DNA from: Telmatocola sphagniphila
GTDB taxonomy: Bacteria; Planctomycetota; Planctomycetia; Gemmatales; Gemmataceae
Reading direction: 5' to 3'
Assembly: GCF_018398935.1 (NCBI RefSeq)
Contig: NZ_CP074694.1
Location: 1,830,001-1,862,000 of the forward strand
DNA length: 32,000 nt
Shown here: piece by piece, positions 6,317 through 32,000 of the stretch
Layout: the number at the start of each line of letters is the position of its first letter
How positions within the stretch are numbered: position 1 is the first letter of the stretch
Program-made: the position numbers and the translations under genes
The notes under the pieces: model-generated
The model's input: the letters and a program-made list of their open reading frames with translations, nothing else
Told to the model about the DNA's origin: nothing
Databases searched by the model: none

Positions 6317-6358
6317 GGCTGGCTCCTAGGGAAGGTCCTGTTACCAACAATGCGAGAA

Positions 6359-6374
6359 GCCAATCGGAATTGGC
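6359..6374 (-). promoter_or_regulatory. Small hairpin directly after the sigma-factor stop codon (GCCAAT-NNNN-ATTGGC)
   Basis: Perfect 6-bp inverted repeat with a 4-nt loop that abuts the sigma stop codon (6375-6377). It sits inside the 58-nt sigma-kinase spacer. Function unknown; it could be an attenuator, a stability element or chance. Confidence 0.2.
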
Positions 6375-7296: not shown

Positions 7297-10044
7297 ATGC
7301 GATCCTCTCCCGCGCTTCTTCTGTTGCTTTTACTTGCTCCCGGTCTGGGGTGGCTTGCGGGGGATTTTTCGGCCTTACCTCTCCTCGCCCAGTCGAAAGA
7401 GACGGGAAAAGAATCGCCCGCTTCTGATTTTTGGTCCTTTCAGCCGATCCGCCGCCCGAAGATTCCCACCCCTCCCACGGAAGATAGAACTTGGGTTCGC
7501 ACTCCCATCGATGCTTTTATTCTGGATACACTGCACGCGCACGGTTTACGCCCTTCCCCGGAAGCGAGCAAACGAGTGCTCGCGCGGCGCGTCTCTCTCG
7601 ACCTGACGGGGCTTCCTCCGACTCCTAAAGAATTGGAAGATTATCTCCGCGATTCCTCCCCCGAGGCATATGAGAAACTCGTCGATCGCCTGCTCGCTTC
7701 GCCGCACTATGGCGAACGCTGGGCCAGGCACTGGCTCGATATCGCGCATTACGCCGATTCCCATGGCCAGGATCAGGATCGATTTCGCCCGAATGCCTGG
7801 CCCTACCGAGATTATCTCATTCGCTCCTTTAACGCCGACAAACCGTACGCGCGACTGACACAAGAACAGATCGCGGGCGATGTTCTCTTCCCGGATAACC
7901 CCGAAGCTCTGCTCGCTACGGGATTTCTGGCTGCCGGTCCCTGGGACGAGAGCGGCCTGCGCGACATCAACGAAAACTCGATCGATCGCCAAGTCGCCCG
8001 GTATCTGGATCGCGACGACATCGTCACTTCCACCATGACCACTTTTATGGGGCTGACGGTTCACTGTGCCCGCTGTCACGATCACAAATTTGATCCAATC
8101 TCTCAGGCGGAGTATTACGGTCTTCAGGCCGTATTTGCGGGAATCGACAAGGCGGAACGGCCTTATGATCCCGACCCGAAGGTGGCCGTGCAGCGCCGGG
8201 AGTTGAACGCGGAGTTGGAACGAATTCGAAGCTTAAAGGGCCGGACGGATAAAACTTTGTTGACGCCGGAAAGGCAAAAGGCCGTCGCGGCGTTCGAGCA
8301 GCAAAGAAAAGCCGCCACGTCCGCCTGGTTCGTACCGGTGCCGGAAACCTGGCAAGCGCAAAAAGGGTCGTCCTTGCGGGCCTTACTCGATCGTTCGATT
8401 CTGGCCGTGGGCCCAACTCCCGAAAAAGATACCTACACGATCACGCTTTCGACCGATCAGATCGGGATCACGGGCGTACGGCTCGAACTGTTATGCGACG
8501 ACACGCTTCCTCACCTGGGACCGGGCCGGGCCAGTAATGGCAATCTCCATCTCTCGGAGATTCGAATCCGGGTCCATCCTCTCGGAAAACCCGACCAGGT
8601 CAAGCTCGTGCGGGTGAAAACGGCCCGGGCCGATTTCAATCAGGCCGATTGGGGCATCGAGAAAGCCATTGACCAGATTCCTTCCACGGCCTGGGGTATC
8701 CATCCGGAGGAAGGGAAACCGCACACCGGCGTCTTCGCCTTTGAAAAACCCGTCGGATTTGAGGGAGGAACAATATTTCAAATCGAGCTCGATCAAATCC
8801 ATGGCGGCGGCCATTTGATCGGAAGATTCCGACTGGGGCTCACCACAAGTAAGAATTTGCTCGAGATCGCGGCTCCGCTTCCAGAACCGATTGCTGCCCT
8901 GCTGGCCTTGCCGGAGACCCAGAGAGCCGACCTGCAACGTTGTGAACTTTCGCGCTGGTTGTGGGAAAATCAGCTCTCCCGGGAATGGGACAGCCTTCCC
9001 CCGCAATCCCGAATCTATTGCGGTACCAACCAGTTCCCGAGTGAAGGCAGTTTTCGCCCAGCCACGACTCCGCGCCCGGTCCATATCCTCAAGCGCGGTG
9101 AGATCAGCCGACCGGGCGCCCTGGCGACCCCGGCGGCCCTGGAAGCTCTGGCCGAAGTGAAAACTGCCTTCGTTCTGAAGAATCCCCAGGACGAAGGACA
9201 ACGGCGGGGCGCCCTGGCGAAATGGATCACCGATCGGGAGAATCCGCTGTTCTGGCGTGTCCTCGTCAACCGGATCTGGCATTACCATTTTGGCAAAGGG
9301 ATCGTCGATACCCCCAACGATTTCGGGAAGATGGGCGGACCTCCTTCCCATCCCGAACTGCTCGATTGGCTGGCCACTGAGTTCCGCGACCAGGGCGGAT
9401 CGCTGAAGAAGTTGCACAAAATGATCGTTCTGAGCAGCACCTATCGGCAAGCCGTCTCCTCCAATCCGGAAGCGGAGCAGAAAGACGCCGACAATCGACT
9501 GCTCTGGCGAATGAACCGCGGCCGGCTCGATGCCGAGTCGTTGCGCGATAGCGTGCTCCGGATCAGCGGCCGACTCGATGAAAAAATGTACGGGCCGCCG
9601 GTCAAACACTTTCTCACTCAGCCCGGAATCCATGTCACCCCGACGGCCGATTACGAGCAGTTTGACGTCGATTCTCCCGAGGCTTCCCGACGCAGCGTCT
9701 ATCGCTTTCTATTCCGAACCCGCCCCGATCCCCTGTTGGAAGCGCTCGATTGCCCGGATGCCTCGCAGTCGGCGCCCGTCCGAAATACTTCCGTCAGCGC
9801 TACCCAGGCGCTCGTGCTCTGGAACGACAAATTCATTCTCAAACAGTCTGAGCATCTTGCGAAACTGGCGGAGCAATCGGCCTCCGATTCCGCCGGGAGA
9901 TTGGAATTTATCGCGCAGCGCGTGCTCCTGAGAAATCCGACCACGGAGGAAGTGAAATTGTGGGGAGAGTATGCCCGGCATCACGGTTGGGCCAACCTCT
10001 GTCGGGTGCTGTTCAACTGCAGCGAATTTCTGTTCATCGATTAA
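7297..10044 (+). CDS. DUF1549/DUF1553 (PSD1-type) domain protein, secreted, with central beta-sandwich-like insert
   Basis: 915-aa ORF with signal peptide MRSSPALLLLLLLAPGLGWLAG. DUF1549-type motifs are present (LVDRLLASPHYGERWARHWLDIAHYADS, HCARCHDHKFDPISQAEYY). The DUF1553-type C-terminus has RVLVNRIWHYHFGKGIV, HPELLDWLA and a terminal NCSEFLFID. Confidence 0.9.
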   Translation: MRSSPALLLLLLLAPGLGWLAGDFSALPLLAQSKETGKESPASDFWSFQPIRRPKIPTPPTEDRTWVRTPIDAFILDTLHAHGLRPSPEASKRVLARRVSLDLTGLPPTPKELEDYLRDSSPEAYEKLVDRLLASPHYGERWARHWLDIAHYADSHGQDQDRFRPNAWPYRDYLIRSFNADKPYARLTQEQIAGDVLFPDNPEALLATGFLAAGPWDESGLRDINENSIDRQVARYLDRDDIVTSTMTTFMGLTVHCARCHDHKFDPISQAEYYGLQAVFAGIDKAERPYDPDPKVAVQRRELNAELERIRSLKGRTDKTLLTPERQKAVAAFEQQRKAATSAWFVPVPETWQAQKGSSLRALLDRSILAVGPTPEKDTYTITLSTDQIGITGVRLELLCDDTLPHLGPGRASNGNLHLSEIRIRVHPLGKPDQVKLVRVKTARADFNQADWGIEKAIDQIPSTAWGIHPEEGKPHTGVFAFEKPVGFEGGTIFQIELDQIHGGGHLIGRFRLGLTTSKNLLEIAAPLPEPIAALLALPETQRADLQRCELSRWLWENQLSREWDSLPPQSRIYCGTNQFPSEGSFRPATTPRPVHILKRGEISRPGALATPAALEALAEVKTAFVLKNPQDEGQRRGALAKWITDRENPLFWRVLVNRIWHYHFGKGIVDTPNDFGKMGGPPSHPELLDWLATEFRDQGGSLKKLHKMIVLSSTYRQAVSSNPEAEQKDADNRLLWRMNRGRLDAESLRDSVLRISGRLDEKMYGPPVKHFLTQPGIHVTPTADYEQFDVDSPEASRRSVYRFLFRTRPDPLLEALDCPDASQSAPVRNTSVSATQALVLWNDKFILKQSEHLAKLAEQSASDSAGRLEFIAQRVLLRNPTTEEVKLWGEYARHHGWANLCRVLFNCSEFLFID

Positions 10045-10056
10045 GGGGAGGGAGCG

Positions 10057-11457
10057 ATGGTGCCGCACCGACGGGAATTCCTGGCCACCGGCTTCGGCGG
10101 CATGGTGCTCTCCCACCTTCTGGCCGGGGAGCAGAGTGCAAAACCCAAAGCGGAGTTCAACGGCGGCCTGCACCACCCGGCCAAAGCGAAACGGGTTTTG
10201 CAGATTTTTCTCAATGGCGGCATGAGCCAGATGGACACTTTCGATTACAAGCCTGGCCTGGAGAAGAGACATGGCCAGCAAATCGATTTGGGGTTGAAGG
10301 CGACCGCGACGGGAACCCCCGGGCCACTGATGAAATCCCCCTTCCCCTGGAAACAGCATGGCCAATCCGGTCGCTGGGTCACAGACGTTTTTCCGTACCT
10401 CGCCGGTTGCGTGGACGATCTGGCCTTTCTGATGGCCATGGCTTCCAAATCGAATGTGCACGGCCCGGCCAGCTACCTGCAGACGACGGGATTTCTGCTA
10501 CCCGGTTTTCCCTGTGCCGGAGCCTGGGTCAGTTACGCGCTGGGTCGGCTGACCGACAACCTGCCGACTTTTGTCGTGCTGCCCGACGCACGCGGGCTCC
10601 CCTACAACGGCATGGGAAATTTCTCGGCCGGTTTTCTTCCGGCCTCCCATCAGGCCACGGTGGTGAATCCGGCGGCTCCAATTCCGATTCCCGATCTGGC
10701 GCCACCGACCGCCAGTAAATTCGTCACCCCCGAAGCGAGCGCGGAGGGTTTGAAACTGTTGAAACGAGTCAACGAGTCGTATGCCCAGGATCGCGTCGGA
10801 GATTCCCGGTTGACTTCCCGTCTGGAAAGTTACGAACTGGCCGCACGTCTGCAATTGTCGGCTCCGGAGGCCTTCGATCTGTCGAAAGAAAGCTCATCCC
10901 TTCGCGAAAAATATGGGACGGCGCGAAACGGAGCCGAGGGAGCTTTCTCCCGGAACTGCTTGATCTCCCGGCGCCTCCTGGAACGGGGAGTCCGCTTCGT
11001 GCAACTCTGGAGCGGCGCGGGGGGACCCAGCAATAATTGGGACAACCATAGCAATATCCCCAAGGAACTGCCGCCGATCGCCCGTCAGGTCGATCAGCCG
11101 GTGGCCGCCCTGCTCGCCGACCTGAAATCTCGCGGTTTACTGGACGATACTCTGGTGATTTTTACGACTGAATTCGGGCGGATGCCGGTCACTCAAAACG
11201 GCGTCGGTAGAGATCACAACGGCGGCACTTTCGTCACCTGGTTGGCCGGGGCGGGGATCAAAAAAGGCGTCGCCTACGGCGCCAGCGACGAATTCTCCTA
11301 CCTGGCGGAACGGGAGAAAACGACCTGCTACGATCTTTACGCGACCGTTCTGCATCTGTTAGGCATCGATCACGAGAAGTTGACGGTGCGGCACAACGGC
11401 ATCGACCGGCGTCTGACCGATGTGCATGGAGAAGTGATCCGGCCGATCCTGGCGTAA
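10057..11457 (+). CDS. DUF1501 domain protein (sulfatase/alkaline-phosphatase-fold), Tat-signal-like N-terminus
   Basis: 466-aa ORF that starts 12 nt after the upstream stop, with a strong SD (GGGAGGGAG). It has a twin-arginine-like N-terminus (HRREFLATGFGG) and typical DUF1501 motifs (IFLNGGMSQMDTFDYKP, FTTEFGRMP, GRDHN, LHLLGIDHEKLT). Confidence 0.9.
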   Translation: MVPHRREFLATGFGGMVLSHLLAGEQSAKPKAEFNGGLHHPAKAKRVLQIFLNGGMSQMDTFDYKPGLEKRHGQQIDLGLKATATGTPGPLMKSPFPWKQHGQSGRWVTDVFPYLAGCVDDLAFLMAMASKSNVHGPASYLQTTGFLLPGFPCAGAWVSYALGRLTDNLPTFVVLPDARGLPYNGMGNFSAGFLPASHQATVVNPAAPIPIPDLAPPTASKFVTPEASAEGLKLLKRVNESYAQDRVGDSRLTSRLESYELAARLQLSAPEAFDLSKESSSLREKYGTARNGAEGAFSRNCLISRRLLERGVRFVQLWSGAGGPSNNWDNHSNIPKELPPIARQVDQPVAALLADLKSRGLLDDTLVIFTTEFGRMPVTQNGVGRDHNGGTFVTWLAGAGIKKGVAYGASDEFSYLAEREKTTCYDLYATVLHLLGIDHEKLTVRHNGIDRRLTDVHGEVIRPILA

Positions 11458-13189: not shown

Positions 13190-15544
13190 ATGCCAGATCA
13201 CACCAAACAGACCAAACTCCTTCCGGGCGAGCAATCGGCTTCCGGCCAGCAACCCAACCCCACGTTTGATACGGCCGATTTTCAATCCGGTTCCCCGGGC
13301 CATTCGCCCGAGGACAAGACGCGCGGTCCAGATCGAAAAACCACTTTGGAAGAAGAAAGGACTACTGAACACGAACCGGAAGCGATCCCCGGATATAAGG
13401 TGGAGGGCATCCTCGGTCAGGGAGGAATGGGCATTGTTTACAAGGCCAAAGATCTGAGTCTGAAAAGAACTGTTGCCCTGAAGATGATCATTTCCGGGGA
13501 TTTCGCCGGTTCCAAAGAATTGGCTCGCTTTCGCATCGAAGCGGAAGCGGTGGCTCGTCTGCAACACCCGAATATCGTTCAGATCCACGAAGTGGGAGAA
13601 ACCAAAGGCCGTCCCTACCTCGCCCTCGAGTTTGTGGAAGGCGGAACCCTGGCGACCAAACTCGCTGGCAAACCGCTTCCTCTCCGCGAAGCCGCCAAAT
13701 TGGTCGAATCGCTCGCGCGCGGCATGCAACTGGCCCACAGTCGCAACGTCATCCACCGGGATCTGAAACCGGGTAACATCCTACTCAAGAGTGATGGCAC
13801 CCCGAAAATCGCCGACTTTGGTCTGGCCCGTCAGCTCGACACCGACAGTAGTGAAACTCAGTCCGGGGCGGTCATCGGCACCCCTTCTTACATGGCGCCC
13901 GAGCAAGCGGCGGGAATGGCGAATGAAGCGGGACCAGCAACGGACGTCTATGCCCTGGGAGCGATTCTCTATGAATGCCTGACGGGGAAGCCTCCGTTCA
14001 AAGCTGAGTCGATGATGAAGACTCTGGACCTCGTCCGAAATGCCCAGCCGGTACGCCCCTCGCTTCTCCAGCCGGGCGTGCCGTTGGACCTCGAAACGAT
14101 CTGCCTGAAATGCCTTCGAAAGGAGCCCGAGAATCGCTACGCTTCCGCGGCCGAACTGGCGGATGAATTGGTTCGATTTCTTCAAGGCGAACCGATTCTG
14201 GCTCGTCCCATGGGTCGCATCGAGCGCATGGAACGCTGGGTCCAGAGAAATCCAGTCGTCACGGGATTGTTGGCCGCCGTGGCGGTCAGTTTGTTGGCCG
14301 GAATATCGGTGAGTTACTGGAAATATCGGGAGGCCAAGTTGGCCGCCGAGAAGGCGATCAAAGCCCAAAATTTTCTCGTCAGCATTTTTAAGATTTCTGA
14401 AACTCATAGCGATGGCGGAAACGTCACCGCCCGGGAAATCCTTGCGGATGCTCAACGACGGATTCCGATCGAATTCGCGGACCAACCGGAATTACAAGCC
14501 GTATTGACAGCCGCCATTAAAGAAGTGAATCGGAATATCCACAAGACGATTCCGGCGGCTCTGGTCCTGGAAGTAAGTGGACCGATAAAAATTCAATCCA
14601 AACATGAATGGAAGGGTCAGTCTGACTCTCAGCGTTTGCTTTATCCCGAGGATCAATTGGAACTGGGCCCGGGGGCCACTTGTCATCTCTATTTTCTGGA
14701 GGACCTGCATCATGAATGGCTCAAAGCAGGCTCGAAATGCTCCATTGAACAGAATGGGTGTGAGCCCCCCGAGGCAGTCCGGGAAAGAGATAGCAATAGC
14801 CTGATGACTTTTGTTCGAGTACCCAAAGGCAAATTCTACAGGGGTTGGTCTGCGAATAAATTACCCAACCTGACGGAGATCCCAGAAGATTTCGAAATCG
14901 CAGTTCACGCGGTCACCCAGGGATTATGGATGGATGTGATGAAGCAGAATCCCAGCATTATTTCACGCCAGGGTGATTATTCCCACTTGGTGAAAAGCGT
15001 TTCAGATGAAGAACTGAAACTATTTCCTGTAGAAAATGTTACCTACGCGGAGATTGAAATTTTCTTAATAAAACTGAACGAACGGGAGAAAAGCCGAGGG
15101 TTTCGCTACAAATTGCCAACCGAGCATCAGTGGGAGTACGCCTGTCGAGGGGCGGCTCATACGCTAGAGGAGTGCTCCTACTATTACTATTTCGACACTC
15201 CGACCAATCGGCTGACGTCCCAATTGGCTAATTTTGATGCGATTGAGGAGCCGGACTTAGGGAAAAATAAGAAAAAAAACCTTCCTGTTCGCGTCGGAAT
15301 GTATCCTCCCAATAAGCTGGGATTGCATGATATGCATGGAAATATCTGGCAATTATGCACCTCATCTAAAGTAGATTCGAAAATCAGCAAAGCCAAAGAT
15401 AATGGCAAATTTATTACTGTCGCTCGTGGAGGAGGTTACTCCGAAAGAGCTCAAAAATGCGATTCAGCACATTCATTTTTCCCTCCAGAAAATGTTCGCA
15501 TGGAAGTAATCGGATTTCGATTGGTTCGAGTTCCCATGAGTTAA
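13190..15544 (+). CDS. Membrane Ser/Thr protein kinase with extracytoplasmic C-terminal FGE-sulfatase-like (SUMF1 family) domain
   Basis: 784-aa ORF. Kinase motifs are present: GQGGMGIVY, ALK, HRDLKPGNILL, DFGLAR, SYMAPE. There is a single TM (VVTGLLAAVAVSLLAGISVSYW). The C-terminal ~240 aa carry FGE-family motifs (YKLPTEHQWEYACRG, NKLGLHDMHGNIWQLC, ARGGGY, GFRLVR). Confidence 0.9.
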   Translation: MPDHTKQTKLLPGEQSASGQQPNPTFDTADFQSGSPGHSPEDKTRGPDRKTTLEEERTTEHEPEAIPGYKVEGILGQGGMGIVYKAKDLSLKRTVALKMIISGDFAGSKELARFRIEAEAVARLQHPNIVQIHEVGETKGRPYLALEFVEGGTLATKLAGKPLPLREAAKLVESLARGMQLAHSRNVIHRDLKPGNILLKSDGTPKIADFGLARQLDTDSSETQSGAVIGTPSYMAPEQAAGMANEAGPATDVYALGAILYECLTGKPPFKAESMMKTLDLVRNAQPVRPSLLQPGVPLDLETICLKCLRKEPENRYASAAELADELVRFLQGEPILARPMGRIERMERWVQRNPVVTGLLAAVAVSLLAGISVSYWKYREAKLAAEKAIKAQNFLVSIFKISETHSDGGNVTAREILADAQRRIPIEFADQPELQAVLTAAIKEVNRNIHKTIPAALVLEVSGPIKIQSKHEWKGQSDSQRLLYPEDQLELGPGATCHLYFLEDLHHEWLKAGSKCSIEQNGCEPPEAVRERDSNSLMTFVRVPKGKFYRGWSANKLPNLTEIPEDFEIAVHAVTQGLWMDVMKQNPSIISRQGDYSHLVKSVSDEELKLFPVENVTYAEIEIFLIKLNEREKSRGFRYKLPTEHQWEYACRGAAHTLEECSYYYYFDTPTNRLTSQLANFDAIEEPDLGKNKKKNLPVRVGMYPPNKLGLHDMHGNIWQLCTSSKVDSKISKAKDNGKFITVARGGGYSERAQKCDSAHSFFPPENVRMEVIGFRLVRVPMS

Positions 15545-15680
15545 AAGCATTTTCACGAGCGCACAAAAAAACATATTGAGCCTGACATTATACCTCGATC
15601 AACCTTCAAGTTATTTTTTGATGTACTGACTTAGAAAGAAGGGGAAAAACCGCAATCCTAAAATTGCGTCCGGATTTTCA

Positions 15681-15709
15681 TTGAATTATTTTTAGCGTAT
15701 TATTACACT
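15681..15709 (+). promoter_or_regulatory. Sigma-70-like promoter candidate for the small-peptide/protease unit (TTGAAT-17 nt-TACACT)
   Basis: A -35-like TTGAAT (15681-15686) and a -10-like TACACT (15704-15709) with a 17-nt spacer lie in an AT-rich 216-nt gap. Planctomycete promoter rules are poorly known, so this is only pattern matching. Confidence 0.3.
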
Positions 15710-15760
15710 CAAATCTTGAATTTCCCGCACAAGACGTTTATACCATTTAGGATTTGTCCT

Positions 15761-15973
15761 ATGTTTCTTCCCCCCCGTATCCTCGCCCAAACGAATACCT
15801 CAACACGTTCTTTTGAGGAGAAGGACTACACCGCCGCCGGGGACGAGGTTATACCCGCAGGTGGAAATTCACCCTCCTGTGGCCCAGGTATGAAAGAATG
15901 CACATTAGGCAGTGCGTCATGGTGCTGTTCTTTAACATCCACGTGTGGCTCGGCAATCGGTGGGTGCAGCTGA
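15761..15973 (+). CDS. Small Cys-rich precursor-like peptide (70 aa; leader + 6-Cys core)
   Basis: ATG at 15761 is preceded by AGGA 8 nt upstream. The ORF track starts it at an in-frame TTG (15716). Translation: MFLPPRILAQTNTSTRSFEEKDYTAAGDEVIPAGGNSPSCGPGMKECTLGSASWCCSLTSTCGSAIGGCS. It is co-directional with the S8 protease and ends 36 nt before it. There is no homology evidence; support is positional and architectural only. Confidence 0.5.
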   Translation: MFLPPRILAQTNTSTRSFEEKDYTAAGDEVIPAGGNSPSCGPGMKECTLGSASWCCSLTSTCGSAIGGCS

Positions 15974-16009
15974 ATTCTTGTATCGTAGCTGCTCTAACTT
16001 GCCCGTAAA

Positions 16010-17911
16010 ATGTATTCATTATCGGAACTGGAACTTTTGTGGCGAGAAACTCGCGGTGATCCGCGGGTTTCCATAGCCATTCTTGATGGCCCCGTGGACT
16101 GGAAGCACCCCAGTCTGGCCCATGCCCGGCTCGTCCCGCTAAACGGTTCCGAATCCGGCGAGAAAAATTGGGGACCTGCAAGTCGGCACGGTACCCAAGT
16201 CACCAGCCTGATTTTCGGTCAGTCGAATGGTCTCGTCAAAGGGATAGCGCCGAATTGTCGAGGACTACTGTCGCCGATTTTCGACTCGGCGGCGGACGGT
16301 ACGCTCAAACCTTCCAATCAAGTTCGATTGGCACAGGCGATTGCCGCGGCCCGCGACGCGGGCGCCCAGGTCATCAATATTAGTGGCGGCATGTTTGCGC
16401 CCAGTAGCCAAGTCGATCCGTTATTGGCCGAAGTCATTGAGGACTGTGCTCGACGAAATACTTTAATTGTGGCCGCGGTCGGCAATGACGGTTGCGCCTG
16501 CCCCCACATTCCGGCGGCTTTAAACTCCGTCCTCGCCGTGGGCGCCCTGGATGCCCTGGGGCAGCCCCTCCCATCGAGCAATTGGGATAGCTCCTACCGT
16601 TACCACGGTGTCGTGGCTTTGGGACACCATCTGACTGCCGCCGTACCCGGTTCGGGGTCGGCGCCGATGAGTGGAACGAGTGCCGCGACCGCCGTGCTCA
16701 GCGGAGTTGTGGGTTTATTACTCTCCCTGCAACTGAAACGCGGCCTGCGCCCCAATCCCTCTCAGGTGCGCGAAGCCATCCTTCAGAGCGCCGTGGATTG
16801 CCGAAAACAAGCGGCTTGGAACTGTCCACGATTATTAGCGGGACGATTGAATATCCCGGGAATTTTAGACATTCTCTTCAAGGAAACATCATATATGAAA
16901 AGCGCATCCCCTTCTGAAACTTCCGATGCTTTGCACGCATTCTCTCCTTCCGCAGAAGACTCTGGCGGAGTTGTGGCGTCCTCGGGAGTCGAGCCCTCGG
17001 CCTGCGGGTGTGGTTCGAACTCGTCCGTCAAAGTTTATGCTTTGGGTCGGATCAATTATTCTTTAGTCTCTCCCGCTCGGATCACTTTTTTAAAGACTTA
17101 CATGCAGGAGTACCCGACGAAGGCGGAACTAAAAGAACCTCCCAAGGCTTCCGAAATTAGAAATGATCCTAAAGATATTGGGTTAATGGTGAGACTACTT
17201 CGAGTAGCCGCCCACGAGCATATTGCCGCCAGCCTGGAGTGGACCCTGGAAATCGAACCGGGGATTCCCAGCTACGCGATAAAACCGCAGGGACCTTACG
17301 CCAGAGAGGCGTATCAACGTCTGATTGACGCCCTTTACGAGTTCAACTTCGGCACCAAAATCGAATACATTGTGATTCCCGGAGTAATTTCGGGAAAAGC
17401 AAAACTTCTATCGGGCCAAGAGGTTCCTGCATTGATTCCGGATTTGCGAGGTATGTTTTCCTGGAATACAGAATCGCTGATTCGCCGTCTCGAAAACGTT
17501 TTATCTGAGGAAAATCGAGCGGCGATACGCCACTATTTCCGAAGAAGTGCAAAGCTACTGAAGAACCTGGGAGTCCAAGCGGAACACCGAGCATTAAACT
17601 TTGCCCTTACCAATGCCTACACTCACATTTATGCAGCCGATGCCAAGCGCGCGGGAAATCAAGGTTATAATTCAGGGTATAGTCTCCCGGAACCGATCAT
17701 GGATCTCGAAACCGTGCACGTTTCTCGAAGTCAGATTTCCGCTCCGGGGACGGAGTGTTGGGACGTGGAAATAGCTTTCTTCTATCCGCATGTTCTGAAT
17801 TCGGAGCAAGCTCGACACATCCCGGATCGAAAAATCTATCAGTTCAAAGTTGATGTCTCTGACGTAGTTCCTGTGATGATTGGAGAAATACATTCTTGGA
17901 ACGCCCGATGA
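16010..17911 (+). CDS. Subtilisin-like (S8) protease of the PatA/PatG cyanobactin-maturation-protease family, with the family's C-terminal DUF domain
   Basis: 633-aa ORF with no signal peptide. The N-terminus LELLWRETRGDPRVSIAILDGPVDWKHP contains the catalytic Asp. The catalytic His is in SRHGTQVTSLIFGQ, the oxyanion Asn in AAVGNDGCACPHIPAAL, and the catalytic Ser in MSGTSAATAVLSG. The C-terminal domain has VYALGRINYSLVSPARITFLKTYM, LEWTLEIEPGIPSYAIKPQGPYA and IPGVISGKAKLLSGQEVPALIPDLRGMFSW. These match my recollection of the domain shared by PatA and PatG. Confidence 0.85.
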   Translation: MYSLSELELLWRETRGDPRVSIAILDGPVDWKHPSLAHARLVPLNGSESGEKNWGPASRHGTQVTSLIFGQSNGLVKGIAPNCRGLLSPIFDSAADGTLKPSNQVRLAQAIAAARDAGAQVINISGGMFAPSSQVDPLLAEVIEDCARRNTLIVAAVGNDGCACPHIPAALNSVLAVGALDALGQPLPSSNWDSSYRYHGVVALGHHLTAAVPGSGSAPMSGTSAATAVLSGVVGLLLSLQLKRGLRPNPSQVREAILQSAVDCRKQAAWNCPRLLAGRLNIPGILDILFKETSYMKSASPSETSDALHAFSPSAEDSGGVVASSGVEPSACGCGSNSSVKVYALGRINYSLVSPARITFLKTYMQEYPTKAELKEPPKASEIRNDPKDIGLMVRLLRVAAHEHIAASLEWTLEIEPGIPSYAIKPQGPYAREAYQRLIDALYEFNFGTKIEYIVIPGVISGKAKLLSGQEVPALIPDLRGMFSWNTESLIRRLENVLSEENRAAIRHYFRRSAKLLKNLGVQAEHRALNFALTNAYTHIYAADAKRAGNQGYNSGYSLPEPIMDLETVHVSRSQISAPGTECWDVEIAFFYPHVLNSEQARHIPDRKIYQFKVDVSDVVPVMIGEIHSWNAR

Positions 17912-18078
17912 TTCGATTATCCCGACGAGAACCTTTAGTCCGCCTAGGGGGCTCGGCCCGGAAACCAGTTCATCAGGAGATAAAATCGTTCGCCCGCTAT
18001 CCCCTAGAGCACGTTCAGTCCCGCGACGAATATCTCCGAATCGACACTCGATCAGAGCTCTGCCGACAAAGGCAATTT

Positions 18079-19296
18079 TTATATGGAGTGTATGCTTGTT
18101 TCCGCTTCCGGCGCAGGCAAATCGATTTCTCCCTGAAAGAATCCCCCTTTGAGCCCACTCACGGTCATTAGCATCTGGCGTTTCACGATCGGGATTTTGG
18201 GAAGCCAAGGCAGTGCGATATCGCGTCCCCAGGCCAAGGGAAACCAGTCCGACTGAAAAAACGGCGAGAGCAAGTAGGTGAGAATGGCGTAATAGCGGAG
18301 ATAAGCCCGCTGTTGAATGCGAAAGGCTTCGAAAGCCGCGGGAGGAGTGGCGGCCTCCTGCAAGCAATTCGCGAATTTCCAGGCATCCACTAAGGCCAGA
18401 TTCGCTCCCTGGCCCAAATGCGGGCTCATGGCGTGCGCGGCGTCTCCGATAAAAAGCGTGGTCGCGTCCTTGATTCGGGGCATCCAGACATGCTGGTAGG
18501 TGGTCGGTATCAACTGCTCTCGATCGATCAGATGGGTCAAAGCGTCCTGGGACTCGGGGGCGAACTGCAAAATTTCCGCTTTCAGGTTCTCCAGGTCGAC
18601 TTGGGGAAGTTGGGCCAGTTCGCGATGGGGCATTCCCCAGTAGACCGTGACCCGGTTGTCTCCCAAGGGTAACAGTCCAAAGAGATGGCGATTGCCGCGG
18701 ACCACTTGAAACAGCTTCCCCGGCCGTCCGGAACCGGGGCAAATCCACCAGAGGGTTCCGTGCGCGTAACGATGGACGCGAGCCCGAAAACCGCAGGCCG
18801 CCCGCAAGCGGGAGCGGGCACCGTCGGCCACCAGGAGAAAATCGAAAGGCCCCTGTTTGACTTCCTGCGCATCGACGATCCAGACCCGCCGACCCTGCAC
18901 CTCCCGCCGCACGATGGGAGAATCCAGATGGATCACGGCGGAGGTCTTCTGCAATTCCCGATAAAGAGCGGTGAACAGAACGCCGCGGTGGGTCCCCAGA
19001 GCATGATTGCCCGGCCGATAATCGCTGTAGCGATTGCAGATCAAAGGCTGTCCAGTGCTGTGGCGGGCATCGAGTTCGGTCAGAATCGCGGAGTGCCGAG
19101 TGACCTGTTCTCGCAGTCCCAAGTGGGCCAGAATTCGTTGCCCGGAAGTTTGAAGGAGAATGCCGGCCCCGCGGGCTCCCACTTCCGGGGCTTGTTCGAA
19201 GACGTGAACTTCATGCCCCTGGCGGGCTAATAGAATCGCGGACGCCGTGCCTGCCGTGCCCAGTCCCACGATGGCTATCCGATAGGTTCGAGCCAT
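18079..19296 (-). CDS. FAD-dependent monooxygenase (PHBH-fold, UbiH/salicylate-hydroxylase-like)
   Basis: 405-aa ORF with the dinucleotide-binding motif IAIVGLGTAGTASAILLARQGHEVHVFE. It also has the DG motif LLVADGARSRLR and the GD motif FIGDAAHAMSPHLGQGANLALVDA. Confidence 0.85.
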   Translation of the reverse strand: MARTYRIAIVGLGTAGTASAILLARQGHEVHVFEQAPEVGARGAGILLQTSGQRILAHLGLREQVTRHSAILTELDARHSTGQPLICNRYSDYRPGNHALGTHRGVLFTALYRELQKTSAVIHLDSPIVRREVQGRRVWIVDAQEVKQGPFDFLLVADGARSRLRAACGFRARVHRYAHGTLWWICPGSGRPGKLFQVVRGNRHLFGLLPLGDNRVTVYWGMPHRELAQLPQVDLENLKAEILQFAPESQDALTHLIDREQLIPTTYQHVWMPRIKDATTLFIGDAAHAMSPHLGQGANLALVDAWKFANCLQEAATPPAAFEAFRIQQRAYLRYYAILTYLLSPFFQSDWFPLAWGRDIALPWLPKIPIVKRQMLMTVSGLKGGFFQGEIDLPAPEAETSIHSI

Positions 19297-21021: not shown

Positions 21022-21267
21022 GGGACACCTCAGGGAAAAAGGTAGTCAAATGACTTTGTGGAAGAGCCTAGTTTAAACTATCGACTCCCCGCCTGTTGAC
21101 TTGGTTTTCTCCAGGTCAGACCACTCCGGTGGCTTTCTCGATTTTTTCAGCGGCCCGCGGCTTCGAACAATTGGGAAACCGTCTGGAGGACAGACGAATT
21201 TCGACGGAATGGCCCAAAGAGCCGATACTTTCTGGTGCGAACTCTCCCGGGGAGGTATAATTTCCTC

Positions 21268-24063
21268 ATGCGATCCTACCCTCTGGCTCTCTTAATAATA
21301 CTGCTGATTTCTGGCGATTTCGCGAGCGCCGCCGAGCGTCTTTTCGTCGCCGTGGGCTACGGCGGACGTCGATTGATTTCGCGCGATGGGATCCATTGGG
21401 AAATTGCCGCCGAATGGAAAGAGAACGGCGGCGATGATGCCCACAATTTGACCAGCGTGGTCTTTGCGAAGGGCAAATTCGTGGCTGTGGGTGGGGCATT
21501 CGGAGGTCATATTCTCGTCTCTCCGGACGGGCGAACTTGGCGCGAAGTCGAAAGCCCGAAATTCCGCGTCAACCCCGTGCTGTTTGGGAACGATCGCTTC
21601 GTTGCCGGCGGCCCCGATCAAACGCTCTTGTGGTCCAGTGACGGTGAAAAGTGGCAAAAAGGGGGCAAGATCGAGGCTAAAGAGGCCACTCATTTTCGGG
21701 TCGGCGCATTCGGAAATAACACCTTTGTCTTTATGGGCAACGCGGGCGGTAACAGCCCCACTACCTGGATAGCAACCAGCAAAAACGGCGAAAAGATCGA
21801 AAAAGTTCGCGTCGATCTACCGCAACTCTTCAATGTCGTTTATGGGAAGGATTGTTTCGTCGCGGTGGGGGCCGAGGGGCGACGGTTGCGTTCCACCGAT
21901 GGCCTGAAATGGGAACACGAGGTATTGGAAAAAGGGATCGAACTTCGCAGTCTGGTCTGGAGTGGTCGAGAATTCATTGCCGGTGGCAGCGGGCAGACGT
22001 ATCGTTCCGCCGATGGAATTACCTGGAGCAAGGAGGCGAAGGGAATGCCATGCCATTTGCTCTATGCCGATGACAAAGTATACATCGGAACCAATTGGCC
22101 AGGTCAAATGCTGAGCTCCCCGGATGGCCAGGTCTGGTCCAAGCATGAGAAGTTGACCCCCAACGGCATCAATCAACTGGCCGTGGGGGAACTCGCACCG
22201 GCCAACACTGAGGAAAAATCGCAACCGGTGCAAGTGTTCGCCGACGCGAAAGCGCTAATTGCGACGCGCTGCTCGAAATGTCACAACGACAAGATCCGCA
22301 AAGGCGGGATCGATCTCTCGATTCTGGCCGACGAAAAGAGTTTAGCCAAACACCGCAAGATTTGGCGTCAAGTTGTGACTCAAGTGGAAACGAGTGAGAT
22401 GCCGCCGGAGGATCAGCCTCGTCTGGGCGAAGTTCAAAAGAAATCGCTCGTGCAATTCGTTCGCGCGCGGTTGAGTGAAATTGAAGCGGCGGAGAAACAA
22501 AAGCCCGATCCGGGCCCGGCTCTGATTCGGAGACTGACGCGGACCGAATACAATCGCGCGGTTCGCGATCTCTTTGGCCTCGAAGACAATATCGCCGAAG
22601 CGGTCGGCATGCCCGAAGACACCCAGGGGGAGAACTTCGACAACCTCTCAGCCGCTTTGAATTTCTCGGATGCCCAGATTGAAAAGTATTTCAGCGCGGC
22701 CGACTACATCCTCGAGAAACTTTACACGCCGCCGACCCAAGGCAAAAAACCCAAGGTTCCCGTCTCGCGCGAACTCGATCGATGGATAGTCTCCTGGCCG
22801 GATAACGGGATCTCCCTTCAAGAAGCGACTCGCGAAATACTGGCCCCCCTGCTCCGTCGGGCCTACCGGCGGCCTGTTGAACGCCGCGAGTTGGAGCGCT
22901 TCGTGGAACTGGTCCGGAAGGCCGCGCCGGGAGCCAAGAGCTTTGAAGAATCTCTGAAACCGGCCCTCAAAGCGTTATTGGTTTCGCCCAATTTTCTGAT
23001 TCGGATCGAACGGGATCGCGGTAAAACCGCGGAAGAAAATTATCGAGTCCGCGATCAGGAATTAGCCGTCCGCCTGGCCTTCTTTCTGTGGGGAGCACCC
23101 CCGGACCAAAAACTCAACGAGTTAGCCGATCGAGGGGAACTCAGCCAACCGGCCGTCTACGCCGCTCAGGTGAAGCGATTACTGGCGGACCCGAAGGCGA
23201 AGGCTTTGACCGAAGATTTCGCCGCGCAGTGGCTGCGGTTGCGGAAATTACCCGAGGCCCGCCCCTCCACCGAGTTCTTTCCCACTTTCAATGCCAACCT
23301 GCGGCAGGCTATGGGCGAGGAAGTGACGCAGTTCTTCGATCACCTTCGCAGCGAAGACGGGTCCATTCTGGATTTGATCGATGCCCGTTACACTTACGTG
23401 AATGCGGAATTGGCCAGGCACTATGGCCTTCCAGACACCCGCAAAGAATTTCATCGAGTGGAATGGTCAGACGCGAATCGGGGGGGACTGCTCGGCATGT
23501 CCGCGATTTTGGCCATGACCAGCCATACGAATCGGACCAGCCCGACACTGCGGGGAAAGTATGTCTTGGATGTCATTTTAGGAACCCCGCCGCCCCCACC
23601 GCCGCCCGATGTGGGAGTGATCGATGAGGCGAAATCGAAAGGAAAAGGCGCCCAGACCTTCCGGGAGCTGTTGACGCAGCACGCCACCCAGCCGAGTTGT
23701 GCGGGTTGCCATAGCAAGATCGATCCCCTCGGCTTCGGTCTCGAAGTGTTCGATCCGATCGGGCGACTCCGAAACCCGGGAAGTTCCATCGATGCTTCGG
23801 GCAAATTGCCGACCGGCGAACACTTTGTTGGTGCGGCCGAGTTGAAAAAGATCCTGCTCCAACGCAAGGACCAGTTTACCAGGAACTTTGTCGAAAAAAT
23901 GCTCACCTTCGCCCTCGGCCGCGAGTTGAGACCCCCCGATGAATCGACCGTGAACCGCATCGTCGAAAAAGTTGTCCAGCGGGGTTATCGATTTTCCGCG
24001 GTTGTGGAAGAGATCGCCAACAGCTATCCTTTCTTATATCGCCGAAACTCTACTGCCGATTGA
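21268..24063 (+). CDS. DUF1592-family protein (PSCyt + DUF1587/1592/1595/1588/1585 type) with N-terminal six-blade Asp-box (BNR) propeller; secreted
   Basis: I prefer ATG 21268 (signal peptide MRSYPLALLIILLISGDFASA, GGAGG upstream) over the track's GTG at 21235. Six SxDGxxW Asp-boxes are present (SRDGIHW, SPDGRTW, SSDGEKW, STDGLKW, SADGITW, SPDGQVW). A planctomycete cytochrome-c-like motif CSKCHNDKIRKGGIDLS follows. C-terminal motifs include CAGCHSKIDPLGFGLEVFDPIGRLR. Confidence 0.85.
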   Translation: MRSYPLALLIILLISGDFASAAERLFVAVGYGGRRLISRDGIHWEIAAEWKENGGDDAHNLTSVVFAKGKFVAVGGAFGGHILVSPDGRTWREVESPKFRVNPVLFGNDRFVAGGPDQTLLWSSDGEKWQKGGKIEAKEATHFRVGAFGNNTFVFMGNAGGNSPTTWIATSKNGEKIEKVRVDLPQLFNVVYGKDCFVAVGAEGRRLRSTDGLKWEHEVLEKGIELRSLVWSGREFIAGGSGQTYRSADGITWSKEAKGMPCHLLYADDKVYIGTNWPGQMLSSPDGQVWSKHEKLTPNGINQLAVGELAPANTEEKSQPVQVFADAKALIATRCSKCHNDKIRKGGIDLSILADEKSLAKHRKIWRQVVTQVETSEMPPEDQPRLGEVQKKSLVQFVRARLSEIEAAEKQKPDPGPALIRRLTRTEYNRAVRDLFGLEDNIAEAVGMPEDTQGENFDNLSAALNFSDAQIEKYFSAADYILEKLYTPPTQGKKPKVPVSRELDRWIVSWPDNGISLQEATREILAPLLRRAYRRPVERRELERFVELVRKAAPGAKSFEESLKPALKALLVSPNFLIRIERDRGKTAEENYRVRDQELAVRLAFFLWGAPPDQKLNELADRGELSQPAVYAAQVKRLLADPKAKALTEDFAAQWLRLRKLPEARPSTEFFPTFNANLRQAMGEEVTQFFDHLRSEDGSILDLIDARYTYVNAELARHYGLPDTRKEFHRVEWSDANRGGLLGMSAILAMTSHTNRTSPTLRGKYVLDVILGTPPPPPPPDVGVIDEAKSKGKGAQTFRELLTQHATQPSCAGCHSKIDPLGFGLEVFDPIGRLRNPGSSIDASGKLPTGEHFVGAAELKKILLQRKDQFTRNFVEKMLTFALGRELRPPDESTVNRIVEKVVQRGYRFSAVVEEIANSYPFLYRRNSTAD

Positions 24064-24109
24064 ACCCCCCGAACCCAGCGGCTTCCCGCACGAATTTCGA
24101 GTCGAACCT

Positions 24110-25552
24110 ATGGCCAGCCAGCGATTGAACCGACGATCTTTTCTCCGCGGAGCGGGCGCACTGCTCTCGCTGCCCTTCCTGGAACAATTGGCCCGGGCCC
24201 GCACCGGTTCGGTGAAACCCCCGCTGCGTTTCGGCATCTTCACCGTGACCGGCGGCACAGTTCTGGAATCGTGGAAACCACCCGCGGCCGGGACGCTCAC
24301 CAAACTCCCGTCGATTTTGAGTCCGCTCGAGTTTGCCAAATCCGATCTCCTGTTGCTCTCGGGCTTATCGAATCACGGTCGCTCGGAGGGGGGCCTCAAT
24401 GCGCACGAGCACTGTTCTCTAACGCATCTGACCGGGGCCCCGCTCGTCCGACGAATCGGCGGAAAGTTCGTGGCGGCGACTTCCATCGATCAGGTCGTCG
24501 CCAATAAACTGGGTGGCGAAACCCTGATCCCTTCGCTGCAAATCGGTCTTGCCGGGGCGGAGAACAAATATTCTTTCCGAACGCCCGATTTGGCGCTGCC
24601 CACGGAAGCCAATCCCCGTCTGGTCTTCGATCAACTGTTCCGGAATCGCAAAGCCATCGTGCCGAACTGGCCGAACCGCGCTCGAAATTCCGAGAAGACC
24701 GTGGGCGATAAACCCCAATCGCCGAACCCGGATCGTTCCGTTCTCGACCTGGTTCGCGAGGAAGCCCAGGATCTCAAACGGAACCTGGGGTACGGAGATC
24801 AGATTCGACTGGACCAGTATCTGGAAAGCGTGCGCGCCATCGAGCGGCGCATCGATTTTCTGGAACATCGCCAGCTCCTGGAAGCCAAGGATGCCTTGAA
24901 CCCCGGCCCGTCGAAATTGATCGAAGTTTCGGGATTACCGGCCGAGAATACCCCGGTCTGGAAAGTGACCCAGCCGGTCTCACGGGATCCGGAACGGCAC
25001 GAAGAATATATTCGCCTGATGGCCGACTTGATGGTATTGGCCTTCCAGACCGATAGCAGCCGCGTCTGCCTTTTTGCCTGCGGCAGCGACGAAGCGAACT
25101 TCCCGGGCGTCGTCACGGTGGGCTACGAGCGCCACTGCCACACCCTCGAACATCAAGGAAATGCCGACAAGGTGGAAAACGCCGACCCGATTGCTCGGGA
25201 AGCCCTGCGGCAGATTCATGCCTGGTACACGCGATTATTTGCCGAAATGATCCGCAAAATGAAGTCCATCGACGAAGGCGGGTCCTCCTTGCTCGACAAC
25301 ACTTTGATGCTTTACACTTCCTATATGGCCGACGGCGGCCACGGCATGAACAATTACCCGGTGCTGCTCGCGGGCAATGCCGGTGGCACGCTGAAAACCG
25401 GCCGGCATATCGAATTCAAAGCTCAGACACCGATGGCCAATCTCTACCTCGAGATCACCGACCGGTTCGGCCTCAAATTACCGAACTTCGGCGAGAGTCA
25501 CAATTCGCCGCACCAAGCGTACGACGGACGACTTCCCGGGTTGAACGGTTGA
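24110..25552 (+). CDS. DUF1552 domain protein, Tat-signal-like N-terminus
   Basis: I prefer ATG 24110 (MASQRLNRRSFLRGAGALLSLPFLEQLA), 46 nt after the upstream stop. The track's 23972 start overlaps the previous gene. Pairing with a DUF1592-family gene is the standard arrangement for this family. Confidence 0.85.
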   Translation: MASQRLNRRSFLRGAGALLSLPFLEQLARARTGSVKPPLRFGIFTVTGGTVLESWKPPAAGTLTKLPSILSPLEFAKSDLLLLSGLSNHGRSEGGLNAHEHCSLTHLTGAPLVRRIGGKFVAATSIDQVVANKLGGETLIPSLQIGLAGAENKYSFRTPDLALPTEANPRLVFDQLFRNRKAIVPNWPNRARNSEKTVGDKPQSPNPDRSVLDLVREEAQDLKRNLGYGDQIRLDQYLESVRAIERRIDFLEHRQLLEAKDALNPGPSKLIEVSGLPAENTPVWKVTQPVSRDPERHEEYIRLMADLMVLAFQTDSSRVCLFACGSDEANFPGVVTVGYERHCHTLEHQGNADKVENADPIAREALRQIHAWYTRLFAEMIRKMKSIDEGGSSLLDNTLMLYTSYMADGGHGMNNYPVLLAGNAGGTLKTGRHIEFKAQTPMANLYLEITDRFGLKLPNFGESHNSPHQAYDGRLPGLNG

Positions 25553-29996: not shown

Positions 29997-30031
29997 CGGA
30001 TTCTCCTCGAAAAGGTCAGAGCGTCATCGAC

Positions 30032-32000
<1,969 letters not shown>

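Follow-up and report, generated by a model that had tools for sequence, protein, structure and literature searches.

A 32,000-nucleotide stretch of DNA from the peat-bog planctomycete Telmatocola sphagniphila (Gemmataceae; contig NZ_CP074694.1, positions 1,830,001 to 1,862,000; hereafter referred to as the window) contains a small open reading frame (ORF) with six cysteine codons, which lies directly upstream of a gene encoding a subtilisin-type (S8) protease of the PatA/PatG family and downstream of a gene encoding a receptor-type Ser/Thr kinase (Table 1). The stop codon of the small ORF at position 15973 and the start codon of the protease gene at position 16010 are separated by a gap of 36 nucleotides (nt), and both genes share strand and frame. 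The initial annotation, made from the letters of the window alone, had described a 70-amino-acid (aa) ORF closely preceding a 633-aa protease and a peptide with cysteines spaced C-x6-C-x7-CC-x5-C-x6-C; the coordinates and the gap were reproduced here, and regular-expression analysis returned the same cysteine spacing.

Table 1. Features of the kinase-peptide-protease locus, with positions given in the window
Feature	Position	Strand	Basis
Receptor-type Ser/Thr kinase	13190-15544	+	Pkinase 1.7e-53, FGE-sulfatase 1.2e-28; conserved syntenic partner
AT-rich intergenic region	15545-15760	.	35% GC; inverted repeat 15651-15668; sigma-70-like site 15675-15703
Candidate precursor peptide gene	15761-15973	+	70 aa plus stop; ATG ORF encoding MFLPPRILAQTNTSTRSFEEKDYTAAGDEVIPAGGNSPSCGPGMKECTLGSASWCCSLTSTCGSAIGGCS
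Predicted leader, residues 1-33	15761-15859	+	Degenerate cyanobactin-type N-terminal box M-F-L-P-P; alignments
Predicted recognition and cleavage motif E29-V-I-P-A33, cut after A33	15845-15859	+	Orthologue and family profile
Predicted 37-aa core GGNSPSCGPGMKECTLGSASWCCSLTSTCGSAIGGCS	15860-15970	+	Six Cys, C-x6-C-x7-CC-x5-C-x6-C
PatA-type cyanobactin-family maturation protease	16010-17911	+	633 aa; TIGR03895
Peptidase_S8 catalytic domain, aa 20-263	16067-16798	+	Pfam PF00082, E = 3.8e-25
PatG_D domain, aa 341-443, first half of cyanobactin DUF	17030-17338	+	PF18047, E = 4.4e-08
PatG_C domain, aa 500-630, second half of cyanobactin DUF	17507-17899	+	PF18065, E = 2.1e-22

The small gene and its adjoining protease

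Conservation of the small ORF beside orthologous proteases, a test that had been set beforehand, was borne out by three loci of a comparison set which comprised 93 loci or sources in total, the window included. L004, L091 and L092, whose proteases (P0003, P0005 and P0002, respectively) share 44-49% identity with the window protease, each carry a homologous ORF immediately 5' of the protease gene and on the same strand (...AAGEVNPAGSVGGGCQAGYTSCTDGTNTWCCQNGTSCGSSMGVCTM, ...SEAVTPSAGKTCTAGFNQCTSGPNTWCCAVGTACGSSMGECI and ...AAEVAPSGSTGTSCTTGYFPCTLGANTWCCPNGTSCDSTVNSCVS, respectively). These peptides are 30-37% identical to the window peptide, and the BLASTP alignment with the L004 peptide spans the full length (36% identity, E = 2e-10). 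The cysteine spacing is identical in all four peptides, and their alignment contains 16 invariant columns (M1, P4, P5, V30, P32, the six Cys, G43, T48, G50, W54 and S64), the core portion reading C40 G43 C47 T48 G50 W54 C55 C56 C62 S64 C69. When all 93 sources were searched in six frames by regular expression, the exact framework occurred four times independently, in each case directly 5' of the protease and on the protease strand. The ORF at 15761-15973 is a conserved, real gene, and this gene and its homologues always adjoin a PatA-type protease composed of an S8 domain and a C-terminal domain of unknown function (DUF). Its GC content of 54.5% is close to that of the flanking genes (52-53%) and differs from that of the upstream gap. 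The ATG at 15761 was preferred as the start codon over an upstream TTG at 15716, since the resulting MFLPP aligns with MK(L/I)PP of the orthologues.

Neither the 70-aa nor an 85-aa version of the window peptide was found in a collection of 15 billion proteins, and none of the four orthologous peptides is present there, so that not one has been called as a gene with these starts. The gene tables at the peptide sites of L004, L091 and L092 hold either no call or a call on the opposite strand. No Pfam or NCBIfam model matches the window peptide, a word-indexed protein search returned no candidate, and an exhaustive phmmer search of 1.84 billion representatives returned only a 2102-aa surface protein with Cadherin-like and PQQ_2 domains (E = 2.9e-4), which was set aside as the match looks compositional. 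A scan of genome contigs with the single protease query yielded three loci, none of which carries the peptide type of the window, and the orthologues came to light only through the DNA upstream of the protease homologues.

The protease passed the curated cut-off of TIGR03895, the model for the PatA/PatG family (441.3 bits; cut-off 421.05), in agreement with the proposed family assignment. Its C-terminal region, which had been taken for the DUF shared by PatA and PatG, was matched by PatG_D (PF18047, 34 bits; cut-off 27) and PatG_C (PF18065, 79.7 bits, above the cut-off), and residues 384-631 matched the PatG DUF as solved by crystallography (4UVQ, E = 1.1e-20). The predicted catalytic residues D26, H60 and S224, together with the oxyanion residue N159, were invariant in an alignment of 25 relatives. 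Structure-sequence alignment refined the assignment further. Residues 4-293 are co-linear with residues 7-293 of PagA (4H6W, 254 bits) and the protease domain aligns over its full length to PatA (4H6V/3ZXX, 235 bits), whereas the PatG and PagG macrocyclases (4AKS and 4H6X) gave merely 122-125 bits and aligned only from query residue 59, after the site of their capping insert. D26 and H60 lie 34 aa apart, leaving no macrocyclase insert between them, and judged from these alignments the enzyme is of the leader-removing PatA subtype and not a PatG-type macrocyclase. A hydropathy scan detected no signal-peptide-like or transmembrane (TM) segment, the sole flagged segment being the catalytic-Ser helix, so that the protease is apparently cytoplasmic, as had been proposed.

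An S8 peptidase of Telmatocola sphagniphila matches the sequence with 100% identity, and its public annotation of 624 aa (P0001) implies a TTG start at 16037. With that start, residues aligned to the conserved N-terminal end of PagA and other relatives would be lost, and the family is better served by the ATG at 16010.

Leader, predicted cleavage site and core within a family of Cys-rich peptides

A metagenome scan with the protease alignment provided 80 further loci. In 75 of 87 loci a regular expression for the leader box found small ORFs, 137 on the protease strand as compared with 17 on the opposite strand; nearly all lie immediately 3' of the protease gene, in one to six copies per locus, and 72 unique peptides contain at least four Cys. 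These Cys-rich peptides share a common layout, consisting of the box MxLPxQxxPVxR, a spacer of mostly 9-13 aa, a site G(I/V)x(P/A)S and, after zero to four further residues before the first Cys, a hypervariable core that measures 22-75 aa (median 41), contains 4-12 Cys and ends without a C-terminal follower. At the site, P5 is Gly in 34, P4 is Ile or Val in 50, P2 is Pro or Ala in 56 and P1 is Ser or Ala in 46 of 60 peptides. Taking a PatB-like gene, an RSIII follower or a second protease as the signature of a canonical cyanobactin locus, the 93 loci were divided by regular expression into 54 of the Cys-rich type, 17 canonical, one with both, eight with other leader-box peptides and 13 with none. 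The window is counted among the last group because of its degenerate leader, although it fits the family in having an adjoining same-strand gene after a short gap, six Cys in a 37-aa core and no follower.

No macrocyclase, PatD-type YcaO heterocyclase, PatF-type prenyltransferase or PatB/PatC small protein recurs among the Cys-rich loci, and their layout consists of a PatA-type protease alone with its peptides. Members include a Gemmataceae representative (P0129, corresponding to the L014 peptide), a Pirellulaceae locus with one four-Cys leader-box ORF 3' of the protease (L001), Bradyrhizobium ontarionense with the protease and three small genes (L088, CP088156.1), and the cyanobacterium Symploca sp. 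SIO2C1 with two Cys-containing leader-box peptides and no PatG within 8 kb (L089). From these comparisons the window locus is a member of a large family that extends over several phyla (Planctomycetota, Bradyrhizobium and cyanobacteria). Its initial description as an orphan locus has to be abandoned, given that 54 of 93 loci share the layout and that the kinase is a third conserved partner in the clade of the window.

Where the sources name the family peptides at all, they are termed 'hypothetical protein', and no curated Pfam or NCBIfam model was found for the family. The window peptide did not match TIGR03678, TIGR04446, NF042906 or PF19158 at E <= 0.1, and the sister peptides gave sub-threshold matches to curated precursor models, confined to the N-terminal box. 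In some loci the same box stands at the N-terminus of canonical cyanobactin precursors, as in MKTSKLLPKLTAPVQR...AVTAS|THCDIATRQCFP|FAGDDAE, which matches TIGR04446 (E = 4.9e-19) and scores 19.9 bits with a hidden Markov model (HMM) of the leader; in these precursors AVTAS takes the position that G(I/V)x(P/A)S has in the Cys-rich peptides. The Cys-rich peptides retain this box and an RSII-like site and lack both RSI, which serves the heterocyclase, and RSIII, which serves the macrocyclase; thus the retained recognition elements match the single enzyme present, and those lost would serve the enzymes that are absent.

Several leader-box peptides of L056, L070 and L074 possess Cys-free, amphipathic or bacteriocin-like cores, e.g. 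...NGVEAS|FPWLAAALPVVGEVIKAIANR, suggesting that the PatA-only logic extends beyond Cys-rich products. Proteins of the PatB/AcyB/McaB family (TIGR04220, E = 1.1e-36), seen in the canonical cyanobactin loci L057, L064-L069, L073, L076 and L080-L086, begin with a box MRLPxLSPPVKR that scores 13.7 bits with the leader HMM, and PatB may, by this likeness, derive from a precursor and share the docking element of the leaders. Outside the planctomycetes the protease-peptide unit has other ATPases of signal transduction as neighbours. In L088 a gene for a 1019-aa regulator with Trans_reg_C, AAA_16 and TPR domains lies divergently upstream of the protease-peptide unit, and in L089 a NACHT/nSTAND3 protein is encoded about 3 kb 3' of it.

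The initial annotation had read the IPAGG of the window peptide as the end of a double-glycine leader. This reading was rejected, as the orthologues have PAGS, PSAG and PSGS at the place of the GG, while all four peptides keep V30 and P32 and have Ala or Ser at position 33 (P1). PatA-like enzymes are reported to cut after G(L/V)E(A/P)S, the RSII of cyanobactins (PMC10885120), and the family site G(I/V)x(P/A)S coincides with it. The corresponding element of the window peptide is E-V-I-P-A, of which P4 Val and P2 Pro fit the family profile and P5 and P1 deviate. Since V30-x-P32-(A/S) is conserved and the GG is not, cleavage is predicted after A33 (EVIPA33), two residues before the formerly proposed AGG|N.

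The core released by such a cut would have a calculated monoisotopic mass of 3455.369 Da in the reduced form and 3449.322 Da with three disulfides, and the leader removed with it one of 3667.82 Da; for a cut at AGG|N the core values would be 3341.33 and 3335.28 Da, respectively. The peptide ends with ...GSAIGGCS directly at the stop codon, hence there is no RSIII follower (AYDG/FAGDDAE), again as originally described. Among 66 non-redundant family cores the number of Cys is even in 57 (binomial p = 1e-9), with 6 and 10 Cys as frequent as multiples of 4, and His amounts to only 1.7% of residues. Even cysteine numbers of this distribution are more in keeping with complete Cys-Cys pairing than with thioethers or tetrahedral metal sites. 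Of the earlier proposal of a disulfide- or thioether-constrained peptide, the disulfide part is supported by this parity, whereas no conserved modifying enzyme was found for thioethers. Single-sequence AlphaFold2 modelling gave the core as a beta-hairpin, with a pLDDT of about 80 within the full-length peptide and of 73.5 when the core was modelled by itself. Inspection by eye of the four orthologous peptides, which read C-G-P-G-M, C-Q-A-G-Y, C-T-A-G-F and C-T-T-G-Y, revealed no FGE-substrate motif CxPxR.

The receptor-type kinase and the remaining gene content

The kinase gene 5' of the peptide gene, whose product is named bifunctional Ser/Thr kinase/FGE family protein by NCBI (QVL33730.1), encodes an N-terminal kinase domain (aa 69-319), a TM segment (aa ~354-372) and an FGE-sulfatase-like domain (aa 540-780). 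In all-versus-all clustering of the flanking ORFs of all loci (at least 120 aa), a kinase was the sole recurrent neighbour. L091 encodes a 781-aa Ser/Thr kinase-FGE protein (STK-FGE) in the same order of kinase, peptide and protease. Its identity to the window kinase is 58% over the whole protein, 75% within the kinase domain and 49% within the FGE domain. In L087, L007, L013, L014, L024 and L012 the kinase gene is placed 3' of the protease on the same strand, with a leader-box peptide between the two in five of the six loci and gaps below 100 nt where measured; no leader-box peptide was found between protease and kinase in L013. The kinase domains of these six loci are 52-59% identical to that of the window and 52-97% identical to one another, whereas the other kinase of the window (4976-6316) is only 36-43% identical to the cassette kinases. 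On the P0004 contig, a kinase with WD40 domain (STK-WD40) is followed by a 64-aa ORF and the protease. L004 and several other loci have no kinase. Planctomycetes are rich in Ser/Thr kinases of this sort, although the orthology pattern argues for a real linkage.

A single TM segment follows the kinase domain in L007, L012, L013, L014, L024 and L001, and none was found in the 493-aa kinase ORF of L087. The C-terminal domain is of the WD40 type in L007, L012, L014 and L024 and of the TPR type in L001, and in L087 a separately called WD40 gene comes after the kinase gene. The loci with STK-FGE (the window and L091) carry the six-Cys framework, and the STK-WD40 loci with a peptide (L007, L012, L014, L024 and L087) carry others. 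To judge by these loci the type of ectodomain tracks the type of core so far, which shared ancestry could explain equally well.

A perfect hairpin with a 6-bp stem (CGCAAT-CCTAAA-ATTGCG) is located at 15651-15668 between the kinase and peptide genes. It scored as terminator-like on the minus strand, and may separate the transcription unit of the kinase from that of the peptide and protease. A scan of positions 15000-18500 against Rfam revealed no RNA family.

With respect to tailoring enzymes, Pfam analysis of the 32-kb window detected no YcaO, prenyltransferase, lanthipeptide synthetase or LanB/C/M, radical SAM or C39/ABC gene. By tblastn the protease is present in one copy only, no other S8 protease appeared in the Pfam annotation of the scanned window ORFs, and there are no PatB/PatC small proteins, all of which bears out the earlier statement that a YcaO/PatD heterocyclase, prenyltransferase, second protease, lanthipeptide synthetase and C39/ABC exporter are absent. 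The clustering of flanking ORFs likewise gave no recurrent enzyme, transporter or thiol oxidoreductase. Among the neighbours that are not shared between orthologous loci are the FAD monooxygenase, the beta-lactamase-fold protein and the PSCyt/PSD genes of the window, BBP7 and DnaJ of L004, and the tyrosinase and metallophosphoesterase of L091. The tyrosinase-domain gene of L091 (5606-7231, plus strand; PF00264, E = 9.6e-36) lies 72 nt after the protease gene, and the equivalent side of the window locus is occupied by the convergent gene of the FAD-dependent monooxygenase (18079-19296, minus strand). Either enzyme could act on the invariant Trp or on a core aromatic residue (Tyr/Phe in the orthologues).

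Elsewhere in the window, at 6375-6953, a gene for an extracytoplasmic function (ECF) sigma factor (PF07638 Sigma70_ECF, E = 3.1e-56) is located immediately 5' of the kinase gene 4976-6316. The two occupy 4976-6953 on the minus strand and apparently have the arrangement of the kinase-regulated ECF sigma factors of planctomycetes. The kinase shares only 43% identity with that of the cassette, and the pair has no connection with the peptide locus. Three planctomycete-specific gene pairs are found at 7297-11457 (+), 21235-25552 (+) and 28554-31993 (-), comprising PSCyt2/PSD1 with DUF1501 twice and PSCyt/PSD1-5 with DUF1552 (HXXSHH) once. A protein of the S9 prolyl-oligopeptidase family with PD40 repeats is encoded at 2583-4658 (-), 11 kb from the cassette and with no link to the peptide; S9 enzymes mature some peptides that are made on ribosomes and modified after translation (RiPPs).

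Proposed maturation, alternatives and comparison with known systems

Taken together, the locus would constitute a minimal peptide maturation cassette of cyanobactin derivation. The 70-aa precursor would be made in the cytoplasm, where the protease would recognize E-V-I-P-A and cut after A33, freeing a 37-aa linear core GGNSPSC...GGCS. Neither heterocyclization nor macrocyclization nor any other enzymatic modification would follow, as no enzyme for such steps is conserved with the pair and the matching recognition elements are absent from the peptide; as no tailoring enzyme is conserved or present in the window, a linear peptide without modifications is the simplest product to assume. The six Cys would pair into three disulfides to give a small beta-hairpin mini-protein, for which the peptide would have to exit from the reducing cytoplasm by means that the cassette does not encode. 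We consider it probable, on the comparative evidence, that the gene encodes a real precursor which is cleaved by this protease near A33 to yield an otherwise unmodified, disulfide-rich peptide. The minimal module of a precursor and a PatA/PatG-family protease, set apart from a canonical cyanobactin cluster, had been the central proposal of the initial annotation and is supported by the comparative tests.

The part of the kinase is more speculative. With its cytoplasmic kinase domain, single TM segment and extracytoplasmic FGE-like domain, it might sense the mature peptide or govern its production, a suggestion that we put forward only tentatively. It is rather more doubtful still whether kinase, Cys-rich peptide and protease might form a bacterial peptide-ligand/receptor-kinase signalling module. 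The released peptide would then be read by the variable extracytoplasmic domain (FGE-like, or WD40/TPR in relatives) of the co-inherited kinase, and to this step, too, we would give little weight at present.

An alternative to an otherwise unmodified product is a true RiPP that is modified further, by thioethers, dehydrations, hydroxylation or other changes, through enzymes encoded at a distance or by non-conserved neighbours. The FAD monooxygenase of the window and the tyrosinase of L091 would be candidates, and with them two orthologous loci have an oxidase gene next to that of the protease. Ser, Thr and Cys abound in the core, and a Ser/Thr kinase domain is encoded next to it. Class III/IV lanthipeptide synthetases employ a kinase domain. 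However, no modifying enzyme is conserved among the loci, the two oxidases belong to unrelated families and the gene of one runs on the other strand, the kinase combines a TM segment with a sensor-type C-terminal domain and has neither a lyase nor a LanC-like domain, and the bias towards even cysteine numbers suits Cys-Cys pairing and not Cys-Ser/Thr thioethers. We regard such a product as unlikely. A lanthipeptide-like role of the kinase in particular was rejected, as it has no lyase or LanC-like cyclase domain and shows receptor topology.

Several observations weigh against a functional cassette as proposed above. The window leader retains only M-x-L-P-P of the box MxLPxQxxPVxR and lacks the Q and the PVxR, with MAFFT placing MFLPPRILAQTN beneath the box. 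It is not among the leader-HMM matches listed, and because of this degeneration its membership of the leader family is transitive, by way of the L004 leader, which with 9.5 bits was the best non-family match to the HMM among 700 sequences. At the cleavage site, P5 is Glu instead of Gly and P1 is Ala instead of Ser, Ala being a minority P1 residue (9/60). The protease forms the longest branch among the 25 relatives, being 46-49% identical to all others, which are 53-83% identical to one another; it has 15 changes at positions that are invariant in the other 24 (median 1), and it exceeds the TIGR03895 cut-off by merely 20 bits. This divergence may reflect either co-evolution with the leader or incipient decay. 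The PatG DUF bound no precursor peptide in vitro (PMC4259220). As regards expression and export, the cassette encodes no exporter, signal peptide or thiol oxidoreductase. A promoter ahead of the peptide gene is plausible from the sigma-70-like site at 15675-15703 on the plus strand (TTTTCA-17-TATTAT, 9/12 consensus match), but the number of such sites in the region is not beyond chance (4 as compared with 2.3 +/- 1.8 in shuffles); of the AT-rich gap with a promoter-like pattern described initially, the base composition and the one site stand, and the site count lies within the shuffled expectation. Finally, the best Foldseek matches in the PDB had E = 9.7 (core) and E = 6.1 (full peptide), neither of them significant, and no PDB sequence was matched by a profile built from the four orthologues. 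The models are only moderately confident. A knottin or inhibitor-cystine-knot (ICK) fold, with I-IV, II-V and III-VI connectivity, is a possibility suggested by the order of the cysteines. That order, C-C-CC-C-C, is what stands of the ICK-type reading in the initial annotation, the AlphaFold models having no significant structural match.

Part of this evidence would also suit a decaying relic in Telmatocola, in which the family is real, the leader has degenerated, the protease is drifting and no mature peptide is produced; the long branch of the protease with its 15 substitutions, its score barely above the cut-off and the leader missing from the listed HMM matches all point in this direction. 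On the other hand, both ORFs are intact, D26, H60, S224 and N159 are retained along with 117 of 132 otherwise-invariant protease positions, all six Cys and the V-x-P-(A/S) site persist, and the adjacent kinase is well conserved at 58% over its full length. We therefore judge decay to be decidedly unlikely.

The small protein might also be an accessory or regulatory partner of the protease instead of its substrate, comparable to PatB/PatC after patA, considering that PatB-family proteins share the MRLPxLSPPVKR box, are encoded after the protease, match TIGR04220 and reach 13.7 bits with the leader HMM. The Cys-rich peptides, however, carry a PatA-type cleavage motif that PatB lacks, their C-terminal regions are hypervariable, and the peptides occur in one to six copies per locus, as is typical of precursor genes. 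For their Cys-free relatives the precursor model TIGR04446 gives a better match than TIGR04220, and an accessory function is considered very unlikely. Even less credit is given to a peptide that stays in the cytoplasm without disulfides and binds metal in a metallothionein-like or zinc-knuckle-like manner. No export function is encoded, the protease is apparently cytoplasmic and some family peptides are very dense in Cys (12 in 40 aa in L046), but even cysteine numbers prevail, with 6 and 10 equalling multiples of 4 in frequency, the cores contain little His, and the AlphaFold2 core model is a beta-hairpin as in disulfide mini-proteins. That the small ORF is a chance reading frame in intergenic DNA, as its absence from all public gene calls and from Pfam and NCBIfam might suggest, is effectively refuted by its conservation, given a coding-like GC content and full-length homologues with six identically spaced Cys at four independent loci whose proteases are only 44-49% identical.

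The locus differs in several respects from the systems it resembles. With the cyanobactin pathways (pat, tru, pag, acy and pir) it has in common a protease which, like PatA and PagA, combines the S8 domain with the PatG_D/PatG_C DUF, and the family precursors share the LPxQxxPVxR leader box, the RSII-like site, hypervariable cores and often several precursor copies. Cyanobactin pathways possess, however, a PatG macrocyclase/oxidase, a PatD YcaO protein, PatF and PatB/PatC, all of which the window cassette lacks; their precursors have RSI and RSIII, neither of which is found in the window or family peptides; and their cores measure 6-20 aa as compared with 37 aa in the window (22-75 aa with 4-12 Cys in the family). 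Unlike cyanobactins, the hosts include Planctomycetota and Alphaproteobacteria, and a receptor Ser/Thr kinase is linked in the clade of the window. On these comparisons the window locus fails most of the defining features of a cyanobactin pathway, though its protease is a bona fide member of the family and the system would correspond in its working to the initial proteolysis of cyanobactin precursors. Linear cyanobactins (aeruginosamides, viridisamide and muscorides) likewise undergo no N-to-C macrocyclization. They are peptides of 3-5 residues that are heavily modified (prenylated, methylated and azol(in)e-containing), and their clusters encode YcaO, G-type proteins and tailoring enzymes, whereas the window has the A-type protease alone.

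Class II bacteriocins are likewise ribosomal and are matured solely by leader removal and disulfide formation, but the C39 domain of an ABC exporter cuts their leader at GG, whereas the window would use a soluble subtilisin and has no C39/ABC protein. C-C-CC-C-C is the framework of ICK peptides, and these, including conotoxins of framework VI/VII, have the same Cys order as the window core and similar loop lengths, and the window core is predicted to be a small beta-hairpin; most sister peptides have other frameworks. In class III/IV lanthipeptide systems the kinase is fused to a lyase and a LanC-like domain, whereas the kinases adjacent to the Cys-rich peptides have a TM segment and FGE-like, WD40 or TPR domains only. 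As a functional analogy, the SCR/SP11-SRK system of plants comprises a hypervariable, secreted Cys-rich peptide and, in genetic linkage with it, a receptor Ser/Thr kinase that spans the membrane once and has a variable ectodomain; there is no homology to the window cassette, and the bacterial peptide has no signal peptide.

A review in 2015 stated that cyanobactins were believed to come exclusively from cyanobacteria (PMC4663559). In a search whose coverage largely excluded the subscription literature, we found no paper describing PatA-only Cys-rich loci or cyanobactin-type proteases of planctomycetes, in line with the initial remark that this type was not known to be described for the phylum. 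Cyanobactin machinery is valued mainly for macrocyclization. The present locus illustrates that the A-type protease and its leader logic are reused alone in several phyla, where the products would be long, linear, Cys-rich peptides. If this is true, these loci would represent a large untapped set of encoded disulfide-rich mini-proteins with one-enzyme maturation, useful for peptide engineering, and a clean minimal setting in which to probe the roles of the PatA/PatG DUF and the N-terminal leader box, which alone have been kept in addition to the active site and RSII. For planctomycetes, they would make it possible to test whether a secreted peptide is connected with one of the many receptor Ser/Thr kinases that are still orphans, and the signalling module, should it prove true, would be a prokaryotic counterpart of the Cys-rich-peptide/receptor-kinase pairs of plants, built from cyanobactin maturation parts.

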